64,000 nucleotides of DNA from a virus (Duplodnaviria; Caudoviricetes), in the IMG/VR virus record IMGVR_UViG_3300030511_000001, positions 17,634 to 81,633 of that record; one strand, 5' to 3'. Numbering within the stretch: position 1 is the stretch's first letter; every line of letters begins with the position of its first letter. The notes under the pieces are model-generated. The model saw only the letters and a list, made by a program, of their open reading frames with translations. It did no database searches and had not been told where the DNA came from. A program made the translations under genes and the position numbers. Of the stretch, positions 35,901-48,897 are shown piece by piece.

Positions 35901-38688
35901 GCGCCGTTCGATCGACCCGTACGCCGGAAACAAGGTGGAGCTCGAAAACCTCGCCGACGAGACGGCGCGGGTGAAGGTGCTTCAGGCCGAGCAGCAGCAT
36001 CATGCCGTCCTCGAGGCCATCACACGCGAGATCGCCACGCAGACCGCCACGCTCGAGCGCCAGGCGGCGCAGGCCGAGAAGAACGTCGAGGTGACGCGCG
36101 CTCAGGTCGAGGCCGAGCGTCTGCGCTCGCGCGAGATTCAGACCGTGGCAGACGTGCAGCGCATCGCGCAGGCCGATCGGCTCGCGGCGGAGGCGGAGTT
36201 TCAGGCGCGTCGCGTAGAGCTCGAGGCGCAGGCCGAGCAGCAGATCGCCGAACAGCGCGCGACCGCCATGGCCTCGCTCAAGCGCCTCATGACCGGCAAC
36301 GGCACGGCCGAGGACATCGCGTCGATCAAAACGGCGCAGGAGCGCATCGCGGCCATCCAGCGGACGACCGCGGCGACGATCGCCGCCGACCGCGCGAAGC
36401 TCGAGGGGCAAATTTCGAAGATCGTGATCGACGCGGAGACGAACCGCATCAAGGTCACGAATCAGCTCCGCGGCAATCAGCGCGCGCAGCAGCTCGCGCA
36501 GGCGTACTCGGAAGCACAGACGCTCGCCGAGGTGATGCGGGCGACGGCGGCGGAGGCGCAGGGCGCCGCGAACATGGGCCTCGCCGTCACCGCCGGCGCC
36601 GTCGCCACGGCCGCCGCGGCTTCAGCCGCGGTGTTCAAAGCAGAGCTGGAGAAGCTGCTCAAGCTCCTCGACAAGATTTCGTCCTGGTGGCAGACGTTCG
36701 CGCAGAACATGGCGAACGCCGTGGGGACCGCCTTCGACACGCTCTCTCGCGGCGGGAAGTTGTCCGACGTTTTCAAAGCGATCGGGGACAGCTTCCGCAC
36801 CACCATGATCGACGCCGTTCAGGCGTGGATCAACGACTACACGTCGAAGCTCGCATTCGCAGCCGAGGGCAAGGATTCGAACGGCAACGTCATCGAGTCC
36901 GGCGCCGGCGCCATGGGGAGCAAAGAGCAGAAGGGCGCGCTCGCGAAAATGGGCGCCGCCCAGGTCGCGCAGGCCGGCTTCAGCGGCTACGCGGCGGGCC
37001 GCGGCAACGGTCAGGCCACGATGAGCGCGGCGCTCGCGGCGTTCGGCACGTACGCGTCGACGGGCAACATCTACGTGGCGATCGCCGCGGCCATCGCTTC
37101 GCTCATCGGCTCCGCGCTCAGCGCCCAGGCGAAACAGAAAGACTACAAGTGGGGGATGCCGACGTTCGGCGCAAACGGGCGCGTCGACGTGTACGCGAAT
37201 AAGAACATTCTCGACAGCGAGCGGGAGATGATGGTCTCCAAGTTCCAGAACGCGGTGAACGATAACTGGAACTCCTGGGTGAACATCCTCCTGAAGCTCC
37301 CGGGCGCGAACATCCCCAACATCAGCAAACTCGTGCCCACGGCGAACGATCCCATTCGCTACGTGCAGGAGCGGCCGTCCGCGAACTTCATGAAGCACTG
37401 GGACGAGTATCTTGCGAACGACCTCCCCAAATACATCGCCGGCAAGTTCAAAGACTCGCTGAAGGAAGCGTTCACCGGCGCGATGGAGTCGCTGACCCGC
37501 GGCCCGATCACGGCGGACGTGAAGAAGGCGCTCGGTGCCCAGTTTGAAAAGTTCTGGACGGAGGCGGAACGGCTCGACCAGTCGACGCGGAAACAGTTCT
37601 GGTCCGACATGGCGGACGGCTTCGTGGCCTTCGCCAATGCGGCGCGCCGCATGGAGAACGTGAACAAGGCGCTCCGGAACCTCGGGCAGACCCGCTTCGA
37701 TGAGAACGGCGATTTCAAGATCAGCGGCGACTCGGATTTCGTGTCGTGGCTGAAGGCCGGCACGCAGGGCATCTACGACCAGGCGCGCGCCATGGTCAAC
37801 CTCACCGGGCCGGAGCGCGTCGCGGCGTTCAAAGCCCTCGGCCAGTCCGTCGAGGGCGTGACGAAGGCTCTCAGCGAGTACATCGCCCACATCGCCGACG
37901 TGCTGCGCCAGCTCAAACAGTCGTTCCACGACGCGCGGTATCAGATGGACCTCCACCGCGCCGGCGAAGTGCGCGACGCGAACGGCAACGTGATCCACGA
38001 AGCCGACCGCAACGCCATGGCCCGCATCATGGAGGCCGAATACAACCGCCTGATGAACCGCATCAACAATGCGGCGGCGCTCGGGCTGACGGCTGACGAA
38101 GTTGCGGCGGACACGCAGCGCGCGATGTCGATCCTCAACGACATCTACATGCTCGACCCGACCGAGGCGGCCTATGAGTGGTGGCTCGCGCAGATGGCGG
38201 CGCTCGAGGCCGCGAGCACCGCGGCACTTCAGGAGCTCGGCGACCTTGCCCGCGATGCGGTCACGGCACTGATCGAGTCGCTGCAGCCGTTCGTGGATTG
38301 GTTCAACGGGCTGCCGGTGGACCTCGCCGCGGCGCAGGCGCTCCTCACCGGTCCCGCCGGCGCGTTCGCGGGCTTCGCCGAGGCGCTGGCCGACCTCACC
38401 GAGCGCGTGAAGGAAACGCTGCCGCCGGGCGGCGGTACGACTCCTCCCGGTGGCGGTATTGATCCTCCCGGGCGCGATGACGACGACGGCGTGCGCCATC
38501 AGAACCTCTCGACGGGCGGCGGGTTCACGGCGATGTCGTCGGCTGCGGTCGTCGATAACTCGGGTGGCGACACCTACAACTTCTACTTTGGAAACGTCTA
38601 CGGCGTCGACGAGCTGCAGCAGGTCGTCACCGATGCCGTGCAGTCGGTCGCGCGGAACAACCCCAACAAGCTCCGGAGGGACTGGTAA
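32947..38688 (+). CDS. tape measure protein
   Basis: 1913 aa, Ala-rich helical repeats, internal DP.QRA..AI..G repeats; follows the chaperones. Confidence 0.9.
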   Translation: MDIVQGVRIEVSTRGADRIAQVGRQIDDLTGKLSKLNGASLSGLNGALNAAAQAAAGILKTVTKVSEDVARSTSRMTQQAVREAQTSAKERARQETIVAKEAERTAKLQEAAAQRAAKEQERASARAAKAAEQAAKQAEAAEWRKLLAAERVAQRQARAAEEAAAAVKKAADAAAREQEKAAKKAADIIEREAARAAKAAAKEAEKQKKAAEEMAKATAAAARSLGNTTAGKGTPGGRDAIAEMGLSIKQLQSMSPTKAFNEVKNAIMQISDPTQRASMAIRIFGDEGRRLGPQLEFGVKELKILDAAARKAKEPVDELADALKRLGKSTNDLEKLEALRTLGLNPEQIIKGKPEAALVAIQMALRGVKDPAQRAQLAIALLGQAGKKMADEMNQGSAILKFFGQVLGGLFPGLIGGNILANLLTMAILKVIDAVKWLADKMIEAVKMGVTYNSFLRETELGIASLVMTYGKWIDAQGNVVASTRAFALSQVLAKDVLEQARVAALETTATFPEMTRALQEGMGPALQAGLNPDNIVKFTQAMTQAAGAIGLPFDQLGQEIRGVLEFDLSRNSRIARMLFQGMGKSADELRNQFNAMTASAKFDYLMEKLKAFSAAGEALARTPKGAMSNLKDAIEQMMGEGTTQLTKDFTEAVLQLSQSFLITGTNGKKAFDPTLIQAIKDAYKAVDEFGMQLLDLAETWAALNGQSIKFEGETTFERLADAVRQVTHDLRELMAMYKEFKELGPIERAMPWAPLTAAKRGEQRVAEEDEWLKGIADPNVAKYIAQHMESEDDRKWIRDNIGWLKKFQAGNMPEPAEGAGFNTSDVPDMYLPAGKPDNAETAQKILVTQKQVEAAQIQAQLAGTGNALARERLQLEIGILNASEKLAKSKIDIEKAEGSTAQKAAMTALAQQMADAEKTQARRGYELATERIAKQEADQVAAQREQLDLLRQQLGTAGELSALVKERVDHDARLASIEAERQAQRRSIDPYAGNKVELENLADETARVKVLQAEQQHHAVLEAITREIATQTATLERQAAQAEKNVEVTRAQVEAERLRSREIQTVADVQRIAQADRLAAEAEFQARRVELEAQAEQQIAEQRATAMASLKRLMTGNGTAEDIASIKTAQERIAAIQRTTAATIAADRAKLEGQISKIVIDAETNRIKVTNQLRGNQRAQQLAQAYSEAQTLAEVMRATAAEAQGAANMGLAVTAGAVATAAAASAAVFKAELEKLLKLLDKISSWWQTFAQNMANAVGTAFDTLSRGGKLSDVFKAIGDSFRTTMIDAVQAWINDYTSKLAFAAEGKDSNGNVIESGAGAMGSKEQKGALAKMGAAQVAQAGFSGYAAGRGNGQATMSAALAAFGTYASTGNIYVAIAAAIASLIGSALSAQAKQKDYKWGMPTFGANGRVDVYANKNILDSEREMMVSKFQNAVNDNWNSWVNILLKLPGANIPNISKLVPTANDPIRYVQERPSANFMKHWDEYLANDLPKYIAGKFKDSLKEAFTGAMESLTRGPITADVKKALGAQFEKFWTEAERLDQSTRKQFWSDMADGFVAFANAARRMENVNKALRNLGQTRFDENGDFKISGDSDFVSWLKAGTQGIYDQARAMVNLTGPERVAAFKALGQSVEGVTKALSEYIAHIADVLRQLKQSFHDARYQMDLHRAGEVRDANGNVIHEADRNAMARIMEAEYNRLMNRINNAAALGLTADEVAADTQRAMSILNDIYMLDPTEAAYEWWLAQMAALEAASTAALQELGDLARDAVTALIESLQPFVDWFNGLPVDLAAAQALLTGPAGAFAGFAEALADLTERVKETLPPGGGTTPPGGGIDPPGRDDDDGVRHQNLSTGGGFTAMSSAAVVDNSGGDTYNFYFGNVYGVDELQQVVTDAVQSVARNNPNKLRRDW

Positions 38689-39212
38689 TGCTCGCACTCG
38701 AGCTCATCGCATGGCTTCTCGCCGCGTATGTCGTGACGTCGGCGTTCGAATACTTTCCGCACCGGTGGGTGATGCACAGTCGGCAGCTCGCGCGCCGTGT
38801 CGGCTCTGCGCGTCTAGCCGAGGAGTTCGAATCGCACGCGACGCTCCACCATGGACGATTCTTCGGCCCGCGCTCGTTCACCACGTGCGCCGACCCGGCC
38901 GCGCGGTACGTGTCGATCGACACCGGCGCGCTCTACATGCTCGGAAAGACGTGGTGGGTGTGGCTGCCGCTGGCTGCGGTGTCGCTCATCGGCGCCGGCG
39001 TGCTCGCCGCCTTCTTCGCCGCGCATGGCGCGCTCTGGACGGCGGTCCATCGCGAGATGCACTACCCGAGCGGCCGCTGGTTTGCGCGGTCGTCCGCCTA
39101 TCGCTTCTGGCACCGCTATCACGAGACGCATCACGACCGTCACGGCACGAACTTCAACGTGCTTTGCCCGGGCTTCGACCACCTGTTCGGGACGTACGGA
39201 GGGCTCGCGTAG
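38688..39212 (+). CDS. fatty acid hydroxylase / sterol desaturase family protein
   Basis: His boxes HRWVMH, HATLHH, HREMH, HRYHETHH; NFNVLCPGFDHLFGT; TM segments. Confidence 0.8.
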   Translation: MLALELIAWLLAAYVVTSAFEYFPHRWVMHSRQLARRVGSARLAEEFESHATLHHGRFFGPRSFTTCADPAARYVSIDTGALYMLGKTWWVWLPLAAVSLIGAGVLAAFFAAHGALWTAVHREMHYPSGRWFARSSAYRFWHRYHETHHDRHGTNFNVLCPGFDHLFGTYGGLA

Positions 39213-41133: not shown

Positions 41134-44100
41134 ATGGCGTTCAACGACCGTTTCCGCCGCAACCCCGACCCGCCGGAGCCCGGCCCGGGCGGCATCGCCA
41201 CGCGCCGCGGCGGCGTCGACCCGGCCAACGTCATCCGCCGGAACATCTACGCTGTCAATCCGCGGCCGTGGATTCCCGGCGCCGGACCTCCGGCCGCCAC
41301 GCCGACGCAGCGGACGTTCCACGATCCGCGCGAGTACACGGGCACGTTCAGCGCGGCGGGGCTGCCGATCGACATTGCGCTCGGCCGATGCCTTCAGCCG
41401 GTCACGAAACTGATCTATGAGGAGTCGTGGAACAACTTCACGACGCTCACATGGATCGTCTCGCTTTGTGAGGGCCCGATTCAGTCGATTCAGCCGGTCG
41501 TCGACGACAAACCGCTGCGTCTCGTCTCGGGCAGCTTCACGAATCCGAACGGCACGAAGTTCGTCGACGAGTCGGGCTTCATCCAGGTCTATTGCTACGA
41601 CGGCTCGCAAACCTCGCTCGCGTCGTCGGGCCTCGGCTCGTTCGATCCGCTCGCGGCCGCGGAGGAGGTGCACACCGGCCTCGCGCTGGCCGTCGTGTTC
41701 ATCACGTTCGACCCCGAGAAGATGAACACCGCGCCGAACATGACGTGGATTCTCGAGGGCTACCGCCTCTGCAAAGACCCCGTCGACGGCGTGCAGCGTT
41801 ACTCGCCCTATCCGGCGGTGCATGCGCGCGAGCTGCTGGTGAACAAGACGTGGGGCATTCAGATGCCCGACGACACGCTCCACCTCGACGACCACCTGAC
41901 GAACCTCGGCGGGTGGGGCCGCGCGCGCAACGACTGCGCGATCGCCATCTTCCCGCCGAAGCCGTCGAACCCCGTGACCCTCGCCAACGGCGGCGCCGGC
42001 AGCATCCCTGCCGGGAGCTACTACTACACCTTCACCAGCGTGACCGGCGACGGCATCGAGACGCTGGAATCGCCGGTCTCGAGCGTCATCACGTTCGGCA
42101 CGGCGAGCCGCGTCACCGTCACCGTTCCCGCCGGCGGCGCGGGAACGAGCTCGCGCAACATCTACCGCAACGCCGTGAGCGGTGTGCAGACGCCGCGCTA
42201 CCTCGTCGGCACGATCGCGAACAACACCGCGGGCGCGACCCTCAGCGACAACACGCCGAACACGGTGCTGCTCGCGAATGGAGCCACGGCGCCCGTCGTC
42301 GCGCCGCGGCCGGAGCGGTATGTCTCGGGAATCCTCATCTCGCGCCAGGCGAACGGGCAGGACTGGCTGGACACGATCCTCGCGCACTTCGCGGGGAAGG
42401 TCACGATGGACAACGGGCGCTATCAGTGCCGCGTCGATCAGAAGCTCGACGCCGGCTACACGCCGATGGTCCTCCGCGACGAGATGCACGACGACGGGAC
42501 GAACGTCCTGCCGGCGAACGTCGATCCGCTCACCGTCGAGGTGTGGCGCAAGGATGAGACGGAACTGTTCAACGTAGTCACCATCAACTACCTCGACAGC
42601 AACAACAACTTTCAGCCGGCCAGCATCACGATCAAGCGCGACAAGGTGAAGGCGCTCCTCGAGCGGCCGCGCGTGGCGACGTACGAACTGCCGGGATGCC
42701 CGGACAAGAATCAGGCACTCCGCATCGGCACGCTCTATCTGAACCGCGCGTGGGATGACCTGCTGTGGCGCATCCGCGGCGATCGCTCGGTGCTCGCTCT
42801 GCAGCCCGGTCTGGACGTCGCCGAACTGCGCATCGGCGGCCTCGTGTTCGATGGTCGCGCGCTGAAGCTCTCCACGGACGGCGACGCCTTCATGCTCGAG
42901 GGCGAGGAGTATCACGAGGAGAGCTACGCGGAGCTCGTCCAGAACGAGGACACGCCGATCGGCACGACGATCCCCGACCCGAGCTCGACGCCGCCGAACC
43001 CGACGAACTGCAACGTGCAGGAGGTGCCCGCCGAGGACGGCAGCGGCGCCGGCGCCTACTTCCTCGTGACCTTCACGCCGGGGCTCACCCCGTACTACCG
43101 CTCCACGCGCGTCGTCGTGAACGACGGCCTGAACACGTATGTGGCGGCCGAGCAGGAGAACGGCCCGGTGCCGATCCGGAACCTGCGCCGCGGCTTCCCG
43201 CACCTCATCACGCTCTACACGCTGACCGATCGCGGTACGCGCATCTCGACGGGCGTCACGCTCGGCCCGATCACGCCGCAGCTCCTCGGCCCCATCGTGC
43301 CGGACGTCCTGAACCTGGCCGCGCCGTTCGACACGCACGAGCGCCGCGGCACCATCACGTGCACGCTGCCGCCGTACGTCGGCATCGACCACATCGAGGT
43401 TTTCGACAACTTCGGGAACCCCGTCGTGCCGCCGCGTATCGCATCGGTGCCCGCGTCGACCGTCTCGACCGGCGCGCCGATCGACCTCAAAGCGTTCATC
43501 CACGGCGACGGCTACGCGAACGATCAGGTGTTTTCGATCATCGTGAAGGTCGTCAACTCGTTCGGCGACAAGTCGCCGGGCATCCCGATTTCGTGGACGA
43601 TCAAACAGAACGGCACCGCGGCGTACACGGTCGGCTTCGATCCGCGCGACGTCACGTTCGACGGCTCCGCGGTGTGGGTGGCGAATCACAACGGCGGGAA
43701 CGTTCAGCGGATCAAGCGATCGACCGGAACGGTGGATCTGACGGTGAACGTCGGCTCGAAGCCGTACGGCATCCTCTACGAGAGCGGCCGCATTTGGGTG
43801 GCGAACTATGGCTCCGACACCGTGACGTACATGAACACGGACGGCTCGAGCGTCGGCACTCTGAGCCTCGCCGCCGGCGACGGGCCTCTCGGGCTGATCG
43901 CCTACACCAACAGCACGGGCGAGCGGCGCATCGTCGTGAGCTGCCACAAGACGAACCGCGTGAAGATCATCGACCCCGTGGGCCTGTCGGTGACGGGCAC
44001 GGTCATCAACGTCGGACGGAAGCCGTGTTTCATGTACGTCGTCGACGTCAACGGCGAAGCGCGCCGGTACGTCGCGAACTATCTCGATAACACGGTCAGC

Positions 44101-44562
44101 GTCATCTTCGGCTCTGCGGTCATCGCCACCATCCCGGTCGGACAGGGACCGTTCGGCATCACTTACGACGGCTCGCGCCTGTGGGTGTGCAACTACGCCG
44201 ACTCTTCGCTCACGCTGATCGACCCAGTGACGAATTCGGTCATCGCGACCATCCCGCTCGGCACGCGCACGGGCCCCACCGATGCCTCGTACGTCGACGG
44301 CTACGTGTGGGTGACGGAGGCCCAGGCGCGCCAGGTCACGCGCGTGAACACCGCGACGCTGCGGCCGACCGCGCACGACCCGATGCCGTCCTCGCCGCGT
44401 TCGATCATGTACGACGGCACCGACCTCTGGATGCCGCTGAATCTGAACGCCTCGAGCAGCGTTGTGCCCGTGACGGTCACGAACCCCGCGCCTGGCGGCG
44501 GCACGTCCGCCCCCGTGAACTTCACCATCCTCGGCGTCGATCCGTCGCCGCTGCCGACGTAG
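41134..44562 (+). CDS. tail tip / central fibre protein with C-terminal YVTN-like beta-propeller
   Basis: LCEGPIQSI, FNVVTINYLD..NNFQ, YELPGC..QALRIG tail-tip motifs; repeated WVANY..D.V blades. Confidence 0.8.
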   Translation: MAFNDRFRRNPDPPEPGPGGIATRRGGVDPANVIRRNIYAVNPRPWIPGAGPPAATPTQRTFHDPREYTGTFSAAGLPIDIALGRCLQPVTKLIYEESWNNFTTLTWIVSLCEGPIQSIQPVVDDKPLRLVSGSFTNPNGTKFVDESGFIQVYCYDGSQTSLASSGLGSFDPLAAAEEVHTGLALAVVFITFDPEKMNTAPNMTWILEGYRLCKDPVDGVQRYSPYPAVHARELLVNKTWGIQMPDDTLHLDDHLTNLGGWGRARNDCAIAIFPPKPSNPVTLANGGAGSIPAGSYYYTFTSVTGDGIETLESPVSSVITFGTASRVTVTVPAGGAGTSSRNIYRNAVSGVQTPRYLVGTIANNTAGATLSDNTPNTVLLANGATAPVVAPRPERYVSGILISRQANGQDWLDTILAHFAGKVTMDNGRYQCRVDQKLDAGYTPMVLRDEMHDDGTNVLPANVDPLTVEVWRKDETELFNVVTINYLDSNNNFQPASITIKRDKVKALLERPRVATYELPGCPDKNQALRIGTLYLNRAWDDLLWRIRGDRSVLALQPGLDVAELRIGGLVFDGRALKLSTDGDAFMLEGEEYHEESYAELVQNEDTPIGTTIPDPSSTPPNPTNCNVQEVPAEDGSGAGAYFLVTFTPGLTPYYRSTRVVVNDGLNTYVAAEQENGPVPIRNLRRGFPHLITLYTLTDRGTRISTGVTLGPITPQLLGPIVPDVLNLAAPFDTHERRGTITCTLPPYVGIDHIEVFDNFGNPVVPPRIASVPASTVSTGAPIDLKAFIHGDGYANDQVFSIIVKVVNSFGDKSPGIPISWTIKQNGTAAYTVGFDPRDVTFDGSAVWVANHNGGNVQRIKRSTGTVDLTVNVGSKPYGILYESGRIWVANYGSDTVTYMNTDGSSVGTLSLAAGDGPLGLIAYTNSTGERRIVVSCHKTNRVKIIDPVGLSVTGTVINVGRKPCFMYVVDVNGEARRYVANYLDNTVSVIFGSAVIATIPVGQGPFGITYDGSRLWVCNYADSSLTLIDPVTNSVIATIPLGTRTGPTDASYVDGYVWVTEAQARQVTRVNTATLRPTAHDPMPSSPRSIMYDGTDLWMPLNLNASSSVVPVTVTNPAPGGGTSAPVNFTILGVDPSPLPT

Positions 44563-44577
44563 AGAGGATTTCTAGAA

Positions 44578-47500
44578 ATGCCGCCGACCATCAGCAGCAT
44601 CACGCCGAACAGCAAGCCCCAGGGCTCGGGCTCGTTCGTGCTCACCTGCCAGGGCTCGGGTTTCATCCGCAAGGATTTCGACAACCCGCTGCCGGACGGC
44701 GGATGGACCTTCATCCGCGTCGACGGGATCATCTTCGACGGCACCTACTACCCGGTCGACCCCTCGACCCGCACCGGCACGAGCTGTAGCGCGACCATCC
44801 CGGCATCCGAGGTTGCGACGCCCGGCAGCTACAACGTCCGCGTCGAGATGGAGGACGGCGAGCAGTCGAACGCCGTGACGTTCACCGTCACCGCGAACCT
44901 GCCGGTGCTGACCAGTGTCACGCCGACCTCGGTGACGAGCCCCGCATCCGCCACGATCGTCTGCAACGGTAGCAACTTCACCGCGTCGAGCGTCATCCGC
45001 GTCGACGGTGTGGCGATCGGAACGACGTTTGTGAGCTCGACGCAGCTTCAGAGCTCGAGCGCGTACAGCTTCAGCGGCCCGGGCGGCACGCACGCCGTGA
45101 CCGTCTTCATCTCCGGCGTCGGCGAGTCGGAAGGTCGCACGATCACGAAGAACAACCCGCTGCCGACCATCAGCGCGTTTTCGCCGAACGTGAAGACGTG
45201 CGGCGACGCCGATTTCACGCTGACGATCACCGGCACCGGCTACAACGCGGACACGCGAGCTGCGTGGAATGGCTCCTACCGCGACACGGTGGTCGTGAGC
45301 GCGACGCAGCTTCAGGTGTCGATCCGACAGACGGACCTTGCGAGCGCCGGATCCCCGGTCATCGGTGTCATCAACCCGGCGCCCGGCGGCGGCACCGCGC
45401 GCAACGACCAGGCGCCGAACATCGTGGCGTTCACGATCAACAACCCGGCCCCGATCATCACCGAGATTTCGCCGACCACTGCCACGGCCGGAACTGGCCC
45501 CGTGACCATCAGCGTCCGCGGCAGCCGGTTCGTCGGTGGCACCGGGAAGACGGTCATTCGGTGGAACGGCGTCGATCAGCCCACCACGGTCATCGACAAC
45601 GGTGGTTTCGAGTGCACGTTCGTCGCGACGCAGGCGATGCTCGCGCAGCCCGGCTCCTTCACCATTGCGGCATTCAATGGATCGCCCGCCGGCGGGCTGT
45701 CGAATTCCAAGACGTTCAACGTCACCGGCGGCGTCCCGGTCCTGAATTCGATCGACCCGTCGTCGGTGCCGGTCGCGAGCTCGACGACGATCACTCTGCG
45801 CGGAAGCGGCTTCGCGCCCGATCACACCGTGCGTCTCGAGGGCGTCGTCGTGGCGTCCGACTGGGACAGCACCTCGCGAATTCAGGTCAACCTGACGCCG
45901 GCAATGATCCCGACGCCCGGGACGTACGACGTCAAAGTCACGAACAACGGCGCGAACGGGGGCACCTCGGCCACGCGCTCGTTCCAAGCGGCGAACGGCG
46001 TGCCGGTGCTGACGAGCATCAACGTCACCACCAAAACGGTCGGCGACGCGGCGTTCACGCTCACTCTCACCGGTTCGGGCTTCATCAACGGCGCCAGCTC
46101 GGGGGCGGTGAACGGCGCTGCGCGCGCGACGACGTTCGTGAGTTCGACGTCGCTTCAGATCATCATCACCGCGGCGGACCTCTCCACCGGCGGAACGCTC
46201 TCCATCACCGTCGTCACCGCGGCGCCTGGCGGCGGCACGAGCGCCGCGCGCACGCTCACGATCAACTACCCCGTCCCGACCGTCAGCTCGTTCGATTCGG
46301 CGAACATCGTCATCGGCTCGCCCGACACGACCGTCGCCATTAACGGGACCGGCTTCGGGACCGGGACGCTGGTGAAGATCGGCGCCGCGACCCTCGCGAC
46401 GACCTTCGTCAACTCGACGCGCGTCACGGCCGTCGTGCCGGCGGCGAACCTCACCGCGATCGCGACGCTGTCGCTCTCGGTAGTGAACCCGACCCCCGGC
46501 GGTGGTACCGCGGCGTGCCCGCCGCTCAACGTCGTCAACCCGACGCCCGCCATCACCTCGCTTTCGCCGACGAACGTGAATGCGGGATCCGGCGCCTTCA
46601 CGCTGACGATCAACGGCACGGGCTTCCGCTCGGGCGTCTCATCGGCGTTCCTCAACGGATCGGCGCGCACGACGACGTTCATGAGCGCGACGCAACTGCA
46701 GATGGCCGTGAACGCGAACGACGTCACGGCCTCGGGCACGCTCTCCATCACGGTCGTCAACACGGGGCCCGGCGGCGGTACGTCGGCGCCGGCGCCGTTC
46801 TTCGTCGGCGCGGTGAACCCCGTTCCGACCGTCTCGAGCATGTCGCCGTCGAACCGCAACGCCGGCGAGGTAGCGCCGCTCATCACGATCACGGGCACGA
46901 ACTTCCTTCCGTCGTCGGTCGTGCGGTGGGAGGGTGGGGACCGCGTCACCACGTACGTCAGCGCGACGCAGTTGAAGGCGCAGCTCCTTCAGAGCGACAT
47001 GGCCGTCGCCGGCACGTACATCGTCCAAGTGTTCAATCCGCCTCCGGGCGGTGGCCTCTCGGGCTCGCAGGGCTTCGTCGTCAACGCGGTAAATCAGCCC
47101 CCGGAGATCACGGGTCTGTCGCCGGCATCGGCCGCCACCGGCGGCGCGCAGTTCACGCTGACGATCAACGGCCTGCACTTCCTCGCGACGACGACGGTGA
47201 AGCTCACCGACGCGATCGGCCAGGTCTACAACCCGACCGTGACCTTCGTGAACTCGACGAAGATCACGGTGCTGGTGCCGAACACGGCGCTCATCAACGC
47301 CGGGAACGTCATCGTGGCCGTCACGAACCCCACACCCGGCGGCGGTACCGTCTCGTCTGTCCTGAAGGTTCAGACGGGCAATCCGGTCCCGTCGATCATC
47401 AACGTTTCGCCGTCGACGGTGGTGGTGGGCGCCGCGGATACCACGATCACGATCACCGGCGCCGGCTTCTACGCGGGATCGGTCGTCCGGGCCAACGGCA

Positions 47501-48897
47501 CGAACCTCACCACCACGTTCGTCAACTCGTCGACGCTCACGGCCACGATGACGGCCGCGCTCGCGGCCACGGTCGGCATCCTCTCCATCACCGTCTTCAA
47601 CACGACGCCCGGCGGCGGCACGTCGAACGCGGTGGCCTTCGCCGTCCTCTCGCCGACGAACCCCATTCCGGAGATCGACTCGCTGTCGCCGGATCAGGTC
47701 GTGCGCGGGATCGCGCAGTTCCTCCTGACGATTTTGGGGAGGAACTTCATCCCGACCAGCTCGGCCGCCATCAACGGCACGGCAAAAACGACCACCTACG
47801 TCTCGCCCACGCGCGTCGACGCCACCATTCCGGCGGCCGACGTCGCGCTCGCGCCTGGCGGCATCGCCCGCGTGAATCCGCGCGCGCACAGCGAGACGGT
47901 CTCGCACAACGCGCAGGCCGTGCGCGCGTTCGCCGCGGGCAGCGTCGAGGCGCCGGCCATGACGATCGGGCCGAACGAAACGAAAACCGGATGGCACTCG
48001 CCCGAGGAGGGCGTGTGGGAGTTCGTGTCGAACACGAAGCCCCAAGTGCGGATCGGCCCGTCCGGAACGGTGGGCGAGGCGGCCGACTTCACGAACCTGA
48101 CGGCGGCGGAGTTCATCACGCGGAACACCATCACCGCGCTGCTCGGCTTCTTCGAGCGCGGCCGTGGCTTCGGCCTCGGCGAGTGGGTGAACGAGCCGTA
48201 TCACGCTTCGAAGTTCACGGGCGACTCGGACGCGACGTGGAACCTCGGCGGCGGCGCCGACATGATCGACTACAGCTACATGATGATCGGTGAGACCATG
48301 TGGGTGTCGGTCGACGTGCGCGACTCGACGATCACGACGAACGCGCCGGTGGAGCTCTACGTCTCCATCCCTCTCGGGCTCAAATCCGCGCGCACGCAGT
48401 ACGGCGTCGGCTACTGGCGTGACTCCACGACGCCCGCAGGGACGAAGCACCTCCTGCATCTCGAGACCGCCGGCACCGCGATCATCATCCGCAAGGAAGA
48501 CGGCGGCGCGTGGCCGACGACCACGACCGGCCTGAACGTCGGCTTCGTGTTCATGTTCGCCGTGGAGCTCGAGGCCCCGATCCTCTCGGTGGGCCCGTCC
48601 ATCTCGTCGATTACGCCGGCGTCGGTCACGGTCGGGAGCGCGGAATTCACGCTGCAGATCGTCGGACACAACTTCTCGCAGGCGGCGACGTGCATCCTGA
48701 CGGACGCGAACGCGGCCAACTACACGCCGACCGTCACGTGGGTGACTTCGCAGCGCCTCACGATTCAGGTGCCGCCGGCGGCGGTGCTGACCGAGGGCAC
48801 GGTCACGGTGGCGATCACGAACCCGGCGCCGATCGAGGCCGACGACCCGGCGGGCGGCACGGCGACGAAGAACCTCACCGTGGAGCCGCAGTTGTAG
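44578..48897 (+). CDS. IPT/TIG-repeat tail fibre/adhesin
   Basis: 13 P.I.S.SP...G.F.L.I.G..F...NP.PGGGTS repeats (the 12th truncated) plus a fibre-like domain; no signal peptide. Confidence 0.8.
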   Translation: MPPTISSITPNSKPQGSGSFVLTCQGSGFIRKDFDNPLPDGGWTFIRVDGIIFDGTYYPVDPSTRTGTSCSATIPASEVATPGSYNVRVEMEDGEQSNAVTFTVTANLPVLTSVTPTSVTSPASATIVCNGSNFTASSVIRVDGVAIGTTFVSSTQLQSSSAYSFSGPGGTHAVTVFISGVGESEGRTITKNNPLPTISAFSPNVKTCGDADFTLTITGTGYNADTRAAWNGSYRDTVVVSATQLQVSIRQTDLASAGSPVIGVINPAPGGGTARNDQAPNIVAFTINNPAPIITEISPTTATAGTGPVTISVRGSRFVGGTGKTVIRWNGVDQPTTVIDNGGFECTFVATQAMLAQPGSFTIAAFNGSPAGGLSNSKTFNVTGGVPVLNSIDPSSVPVASSTTITLRGSGFAPDHTVRLEGVVVASDWDSTSRIQVNLTPAMIPTPGTYDVKVTNNGANGGTSATRSFQAANGVPVLTSINVTTKTVGDAAFTLTLTGSGFINGASSGAVNGAARATTFVSSTSLQIIITAADLSTGGTLSITVVTAAPGGGTSAARTLTINYPVPTVSSFDSANIVIGSPDTTVAINGTGFGTGTLVKIGAATLATTFVNSTRVTAVVPAANLTAIATLSLSVVNPTPGGGTAACPPLNVVNPTPAITSLSPTNVNAGSGAFTLTINGTGFRSGVSSAFLNGSARTTTFMSATQLQMAVNANDVTASGTLSITVVNTGPGGGTSAPAPFFVGAVNPVPTVSSMSPSNRNAGEVAPLITITGTNFLPSSVVRWEGGDRVTTYVSATQLKAQLLQSDMAVAGTYIVQVFNPPPGGGLSGSQGFVVNAVNQPPEITGLSPASAATGGAQFTLTINGLHFLATTTVKLTDAIGQVYNPTVTFVNSTKITVLVPNTALINAGNVIVAVTNPTPGGGTVSSVLKVQTGNPVPSIINVSPSTVVVGAADTTITITGAGFYAGSVVRANGTNLTTTFVNSSTLTATMTAALAATVGILSITVFNTTPGGGTSNAVAFAVLSPTNPIPEIDSLSPDQVVRGIAQFLLTILGRNFIPTSSAAINGTAKTTTYVSPTRVDATIPAADVALAPGGIARVNPRAHSETVSHNAQAVRAFAAGSVEAPAMTIGPNETKTGWHSPEEGVWEFVSNTKPQVRIGPSGTVGEAADFTNLTAAEFITRNTITALLGFFERGRGFGLGEWVNEPYHASKFTGDSDATWNLGGGADMIDYSYMMIGETMWVSVDVRDSTITTNAPVELYVSIPLGLKSARTQYGVGYWRDSTTPAGTKHLLHLETAGTAIIIRKEDGGAWPTTTTGLNVGFVFMFAVELEAPILSVGPSISSITPASVTVGSAEFTLQIVGHNFSQAATCILTDANAANYTPTVTWVTSQRLTIQVPPAAVLTEGTVTVAITNPAPIEADDPAGGTATKNLTVEPQL

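Follow-up and report, generated by a model that had tools for sequence, protein, structure and literature searches.

In the chaperone-usher pili (Fim, Pap and Caf1), an immunoglobulin (Ig)-like domain that lacks its C-terminal strand or strands is completed by donor-strand complementation and exchange, giving a very stable non-covalent link. Open beta-propellers that are closed in trans by the strands of a partner protein ('domain invasion') are found in the nuclear pore and in COPII coats, the examples being Sec13-Nup145C, Sec13-Sec31 and Seh1-Nup85. The subject of this study is a pair of adjacent tail genes in a 64,000-nt stretch of DNA (the window, analysed over its whole length) that is part of a linear 81.6-kb IMG/VR virus record. 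Gene 1 (41134..44562, plus strand) encodes a tail-tip protein and gene 2 (44578..48897, plus strand) a fibre protein. The sequences and single-chain structure predictions suggest that, on balance, reciprocal beta-strand complementation probably docks the fibre on the tail tip, the two proteins forming an obligate complex in the virion.

Two further systems are close in general plan. PilC/PilY1 adhesins have C-terminal tails that enter the minor-pilin complex through beta-strand augmentation, and this locus is similar in having a large protein with a C-terminal beta-propeller and a short, conserved tail that is unstructured alone and predicted to dock on a partner sheet, by which an adhesin is tethered to a fibre (PMC13711793). 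Phage lambda combines a central tail-tip protein, gpJ, with a separately encoded side tail fibre, Stf, that aids adsorption, and the window likewise encodes a gpJ-type tail-tip protein and a separate fibre (PMC12617516). In Ur-lambda, the N-terminal collar domains of Stf are complete folds that bind the gpV/gpM junction (PMC12617516).

The coordinates and reading frames given for both genes in the original prediction, which had been made from the letters of the window, are correct. The product of gene 1 (1142 amino acids, aa) carries a gpJ-like Phage-tail_3 region (PF13550; 44.7 bits against a Pfam cut-off of 23), a C-terminal YVTN-type beta-propeller and a short tail; a Pfam match to Vgb_lyase (30.9 bits) falls under the cut-off of 50. 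The gene lies 3′ of the tape-measure and distal-tail genes, an order that is repeated in the homologous loci, and by both Pfam domain and gene order its product is a lambda gpJ-like tail-tip protein. Gene 2 specifies 1439 aa: an array of 12 IPT/TIG repeats in tandem leads to a conserved junction segment, which is followed by a variable domain and a 13th IPT. Its Pfam match to PF01833 (IPT/TIG) covers nine stretches (E 1.7e-62; 207.8 bits, cut-off 20.9), and Foldseek matches its IPT domains to those of Met and plexin.

The original prediction held that the two genes had exchanged their C-terminal ends, and the IPT half of this exchange is distinct. A hidden Markov model (HMM) of 91 positions was built from the window's own IPT repeats 3–11, and profiles of 59 intact IPTs and 42 propeller blades were compared by hhalign; AlphaFold2 (AF2) was run on single chains (gene 1 residues 800–1142; gene 2 residues 936–1180). 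The tail of gene 1 (44446..44559, plus strand; residues 1105–1142, 38 in all) consists of an IPT F-G hairpin of 28 residues (1106–1133) and a nearly invariant nine-residue end. Residues 1106–1133 match the IPT HMM at positions 62–89 (independent E-value, iE, 7e-7), and by hhalign the tail matches the profile of 59 IPTs at positions 62–88 (probability 97.5%, E 5e-12), with no match to the 42-blade profile (E 0.14). Tails of this type in nine homologues also match the IPT HMM, at iE values from 1.6e-4 to 3e-7. By profile comparison, the tail is homologous to IPT strands F-G, in agreement with the predicted switch from propeller to IPT closing strands. Its assignment as strands C-D of propeller blade 7 was rejected by the blade HMM, hhalign and AF2.

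IPT repeats 1–11 of gene 2 (44578..47661, plus strand) are all complete domains, the own-repeat HMM covering positions of about 2–90 in repeats 1 and 3–11, and only 2–74 in repeat 2. IPT repeat 12 (47662..47853, plus strand; residues 1029–1092) is without strands F-G, as had been predicted: it matches only positions 1–64 of the 91, and in place of a seven-strand sandwich AF2 forms strands A-E alone. The original prediction also proposed that a join at a shared Ala would restore a clean IPT, and the in-silico join gives a single gap-free IPT over profile positions 1–88, scoring 98 bits. When fibre strands A-E and tail strands F-G were joined at the homologous column, an uninterrupted IPT (positions 1–88/89; 77–98 bits) was obtained in all six loci tested, with scores inside the range of intact repeats. 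The fibre segment that follows repeat 12 has no resemblance to IPT strands F-G by hhalign, and closure of repeat 12 by diverged F-G strands of its own was rejected by hhalign and AF2. At the level of sequence, then, there is an Ig-like acceptor without its C-terminal strands, and the matching strands are carried by another polypeptide. The 81.6-kb virus record encodes no IPT protein besides the product of gene 2, so that IPT12 is the sole visible acceptor for the gene 1 hairpin.

The beta-propeller of gene 1 (43615..44445, plus strand; residues 828–1104) comprises six blades that are complete and a seventh represented by strands A-B, together with an N-terminal closing strand. Its best match in the PDB by Foldseek is 1l0q_A, a 7-bladed YVTN propeller (E 8e-18, 28% identity). 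In blade 7 the match to the blade HMM extends no further than the first 12 residues, and the AF2 model shows, instead of seven complete four-stranded blades in one chain, a seventh blade in which strands A and B are joined only by the N-terminal closing strand. The post-IPT12 segment of gene 2 (47848..47952, plus strand; residues 1091–1125) is a candidate donor of blade-7 strand C, followed by a possible short helix. It aligns by hhalign to blade positions 21–38 (E 0.004), a score reached by none of 300 column shuffles. This alignment lends moderate support to the proposal that the fibre segment supplies the missing strand of blade 7.

In the single-chain AF2 models, the propeller has a predicted local distance difference test score (pLDDT) mostly above 90, falling below 50 in the tail (residues 1105–1142). 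IPT repeat 11 is a complete sandwich (pLDDT >90), while the five strands A-E of IPT12 (pLDDT 85–91) are followed by 44 unstructured residues (1092–1135), the post-IPT12 segment having a pLDDT below 50. Complete folding of both proteins alone, which the original prediction had named as an outcome that would count against it, was not observed; the junction segments are left disordered. Conserved segments that are disordered alone usually fold on a partner.

Eight tail-tip homologues are 43–71% identical to the window protein over a C-terminal query of 323 residues (propeller plus tail), and all eight are closed by the same hairpin and nearly invariant nine-residue end, as are two further proteins in loci L008 and L009. 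The C-terminus matches IPT positions 56–63 to 88–89 in P0001, P0003–P0010 and the L009 protein, and the tail-tip protein of L008 (P0131) has the same tail as judged by eye. An IPT-array fibre accompanies each tail-tip homologue. Fibres of the window and seven other loci (L002, L003, L004, L005, L006, L008 and L009) were scanned with the HMM, and in all of them the last IPT of the array ends at profile positions 61–67; next come a conserved segment, common to all and about 35 residues long, and one copy of a fibre repeat. Downstream of that copy the fibre proteins diverge fully or end. Four other fibres (P0122, P0123, P0206 and P0225) carry the same junction motif after the last IPT, again judged by eye, and all inspected proteins that match the full post-IPT12 segment have a truncated IPT upstream (the inspected set does not include P0238 and P0244). 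The complementary cuts are seen in each of the nine loci that were readable.

The gene 1 tail has a mean pairwise identity of 0.63, rising to 0.77 in its last nine residues, compared with 0.48 for the propeller; the values for the fibre are 0.44 in the post-IPT12 segment and 0.47–0.48 in the folded IPTs. The regions left disordered by AF2 are conserved nonetheless, the tail more strongly than the propeller and the fibre segment about equally to the folded IPTs. The original prediction had suggested a comparison of gene order, and this shows the pair to be adjacent in most loci and separated in L006 and L008, where 1.4 and 4.9 kb, with other genes of which many are on the opposite strand, lie between the two, and where the junctions are the same. 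The arrangement is old and has been maintained by selection.

Other searches added little to this family. A pattern scan of a viral contig collection with the propeller returned no relatives, and the only match by tblastn among GenBank phages was a weak, N-terminal one to a Pelagibacter phage. When long, fused forms were sought, the only matches were huge surface proteins with IPT repeats, whose similarity is confined to the hairpin, and in a profile search with the post-IPT12 region, no unsplit ancestor combining propeller and distal fibre was found.

Of the three readings offered by the original prediction, the interlocking of the two proteins in the virion fits best, given that the truncations are conserved, the junction segments are conserved and disordered alone, and the arrangement persists where the genes are unlinked; it stands as a prediction. 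The C-terminal hairpin of gene 1 would donate strands F and G to the incomplete IPT12 of the fibre. The fibre chain would leave IPT12 after strand E, probably lay one strand (C) into the open blade 7 of the propeller, and then run into its distal, variable, receptor-binding part. The two chains would cross at one point, each fold being finished by the other protein, and IPT repeats 1–11 would project as a free arm. There would be three such pairs per tail if the tail-tip protein is a trimer, like lambda gpJ. We infer the pairing of the halves, the strand donation to the propeller and the stoichiometry from the junctions and the models of lone chains.

Several points weigh against this reading. 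The AF2 alignments held seven sequences, and the low pLDDT values could partly reflect such shallow data. The similarity between the post-IPT12 segment and a propeller strand is short, and a plain blade HMM finds the segment significant only in L006 (8 bits). The family of about ten lineages is too small for a coevolution test. The models are of lone chains, and the pair itself is known from sequence and single-chain predictions; the gene 1 hairpin could dock elsewhere, and IPT12 could gain its closing strands after oligomerisation, either from the segment downstream of it in the same chain or from an adjacent fibre chain. This last thought can be taken further, into a reading without any complementation in trans, in which the hairpin has been conserved as a relic, or serves as a peptide that docks some other partner, and IPT12 is unusual yet self-sufficient or completed within a homo-oligomer. 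Monomer models cannot show homo-oligomeric completion, and Ig-like domains tolerate variation at their edges. It is made improbable by the position of the two cuts, which fall at the same place in the domain in every lineage, by the in-register join, by a tail more conserved than the propeller it follows, by a post-IPT12 segment unlike strands F-G, and by the lack of a second IPT protein in the virus record. Only slightly better placed, and still unlikely, is a one-way version, in which the hairpin completes IPT12 and the fibre segment does something else, for example as a trimerisation neck, blade 7 being simply three-stranded. The statistics of the IPT half are strong and those of the blade half weak, the AF2 propeller closes without an extra strand, and the segment is followed by a common fibre repeat that is likely to oligomerise, all of which would suit a one-way donation. 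Against it, the alignment of the segment with blade strand C beats all 300 shuffles, and the segment lies exactly at the junction while blade 7 lacks exactly that strand.

Explanations at the level of nucleic acid or translation fare far worse. They would have a recent insertion, an assembly artefact, or a resolution by excision, back-splicing or readthrough that yields two clean proteins or one fusion, and were suggested by the layout of the window: gene 2 shares the frame of gene 1, and between them at 44560..44577 (plus strand) are a single TAG stop and a 15-nt spacer with a ribosome-binding site (AGAGGA), after which comes the gene 2 ATG; the swapped block is a multiple of 3. The predicted spacing of 3396 bp is correct and carries no weight, and the CGC microhomology at the shared Ala exists and is meaningless in a GC-rich genome, given the age of the arrangement. 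Among the homologues, the gene 1 stop is TAG, TAA or TGA, and the frame is common to both genes in five of eight adjacent pairs. Stop-codon readthrough or fusion, which the in-frame TAG had brought to mind, was dropped, as stops and frames vary in eight loci and no tRNA was found in the window. Pfam scans of both proteins revealed no Hint/intein family, and with no intein halves at the junctions a split intein or protein trans-splicing was also set aside. At the DNA level, tail and repeats are no more than 72–92% similar over 24–65 nt. Many samples, assembled independently, contain the same junctions in proteins with C-terminal regions 43–71% identical to the query, which speaks against a misassembly. 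Excision or back-splicing of DNA or RNA, the second reading of the original prediction, conflicts with the unlinked genes of L006 and L008, and each gene keeps its own stop, spacer and start. Together, the variation of stops and frames, the unlinked loci, the lack of a tRNA and the modest DNA similarity make readthrough, excision, back-splicing, misassembly and recent insertion untenable, and we give this group of explanations next to no credence. A 13-nt sequence, CGCGCCTGGCGGC (encoding APGG), is shared by 44487–44499 in the gene 1 tail and 47850–47862 just past the gene 2 junction; the identity of CGCGCCTGGCGGC at the two sites is absent from the homologues and is probably due to chance in a GC-rich genome.

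The remaining reading of the original prediction, insertion of a cassette into the tail-tip gene, fails as a recent event and survives only as an ancient origin, as the junctions are present in relatives of 43–71% identity and no unsplit form was found. The likely course, which stays conjecture because no unsplit form was found, is that in the distant past the blade-7 loop took up part of an IPT array, out of register, or else a permuted IPT gene, and that the gene later split in an inter-repeat linker. A more far-reaching possibility, which we put forward tentatively, is that the two proteins are a natural, obligate 'cross-over' heterocomplex, in which both an IPT sandwich and a propeller blade are divided at one point between the two chains, which can fold only together; that it arose by nested insertion of an IPT array into a propeller loop and subsequent gene fission; and that the lineage of L009 reused this process to divide the propeller again.

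In L009 (L009:3402–7735), the tail-tip propeller of this more distant relative is split a second time. A protein of 961 aa ends at position 28 of blade 4, an unrelated gene of 219 aa comes next, and a protein of 233 aa then resumes at blade position 31 and contains blades 5, 6 and 7 (A-B) plus the IPT hairpin tail. A propeller divided between two proteins at a strand boundary indicates that assembly of the fold from separate chains is tolerated in this lineage.

Reciprocal complementation as predicted here is like the chaperone-usher pili in that an Ig-like domain without its C-terminal strands would be completed from another polypeptide. It differs in that the donation would consist of a pair of strands (F and G), not a single one, in that the donor is the C-terminus of a propeller protein that is not Ig-like, and in that the exchange is apparently reciprocal, joins two different folds and takes place in a phage tail without chaperone or usher; no periplasmic chaperone or usher, neither of which would be expected of a phage, was noticed among the called genes of the loci, no search having been aimed at them. 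In Sec13 and Seh1 a whole blade is donated to a six-bladed propeller, whereas here it would be one strand of blade 7, with weaker evidence and coupled to a return donation. The PilC/PilY1 tail augments a complete fold, whereas the gene 1 tail is a fragment of the partner's own domain family and is exactly what the partner lacks (PMC13711793). Unlike the Stf of Ur-lambda, the fibre would be attached close to its C-terminal third, through complementation of split domains on a gpJ-like protein (PMC12617516). The literature searched yielded no example of two different folds exchanging strands reciprocally in a phage tail. The assembly principle is known from pili, PilC/PilY1 and trans-completed propellers, and the predicted reciprocal version, with two different folds in a phage tail, would be a variation on it.

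The way a fibre is fastened to the tail tip determines which parts can be exchanged for a change of host range. If it exists, a two-way exchange of strands that links a propeller to an Ig-like domain would add a new type of fastening to those of tailed phages. It would also illustrate clearly, in nature, how a domain can undergo fission with both fragments staying functional, and could serve as a design for engineered self-assembling protein pairs; a true cross-over complex would give phages a modular, strand-exchange route for grafting fibres on the tail tip. In the annotation of phage tail modules, a domain cut short at the end of a gene is not necessarily an error or a sign of decay.

The distal part of gene 2 begins with the single copy of the fibre repeat (47953..48078, plus strand; residues 1126–1167). 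The variable part that follows (48079..48897, plus strand) comprises a domain of about 170 aa, a complete 13th IPT (HMM positions 3–87) and the stop, and is presumed to be the receptor-binding end; its counterpart in the homologues is different or absent. The 47953–48078 repeat is widespread, with 756 proteins found at E<=1e-3 in the profile search with the post-IPT12 region, many with 5–24 copies, and most of these matches cover the repeat and not the post-IPT12 segment. The repeat is a likely recombination boundary for the exchange of receptor-binding ends. In L006 and L008, the fibre ends right after the conserved junction and is followed by a separate gene of 542–602 aa (L006:16248–18056 and L008:9233–10861), which may be the detached distal, receptor-binding part.

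Large cell-surface proteins (P0124–P0126, P0130 and P0141) contain IPT repeats with F-G hairpins almost identical to the phage tail motif. Two of them are source-labelled Pyrinomonadaceae and Acidoferrum, and the near-identical hairpins hint at a host or donor among the Acidobacteriota. Between the tape-measure and tail-tip genes of the window lies a small gene (38688–39212), the counterpart of which in a related contig has a weak Pfam match to fatty-acid hydroxylase.

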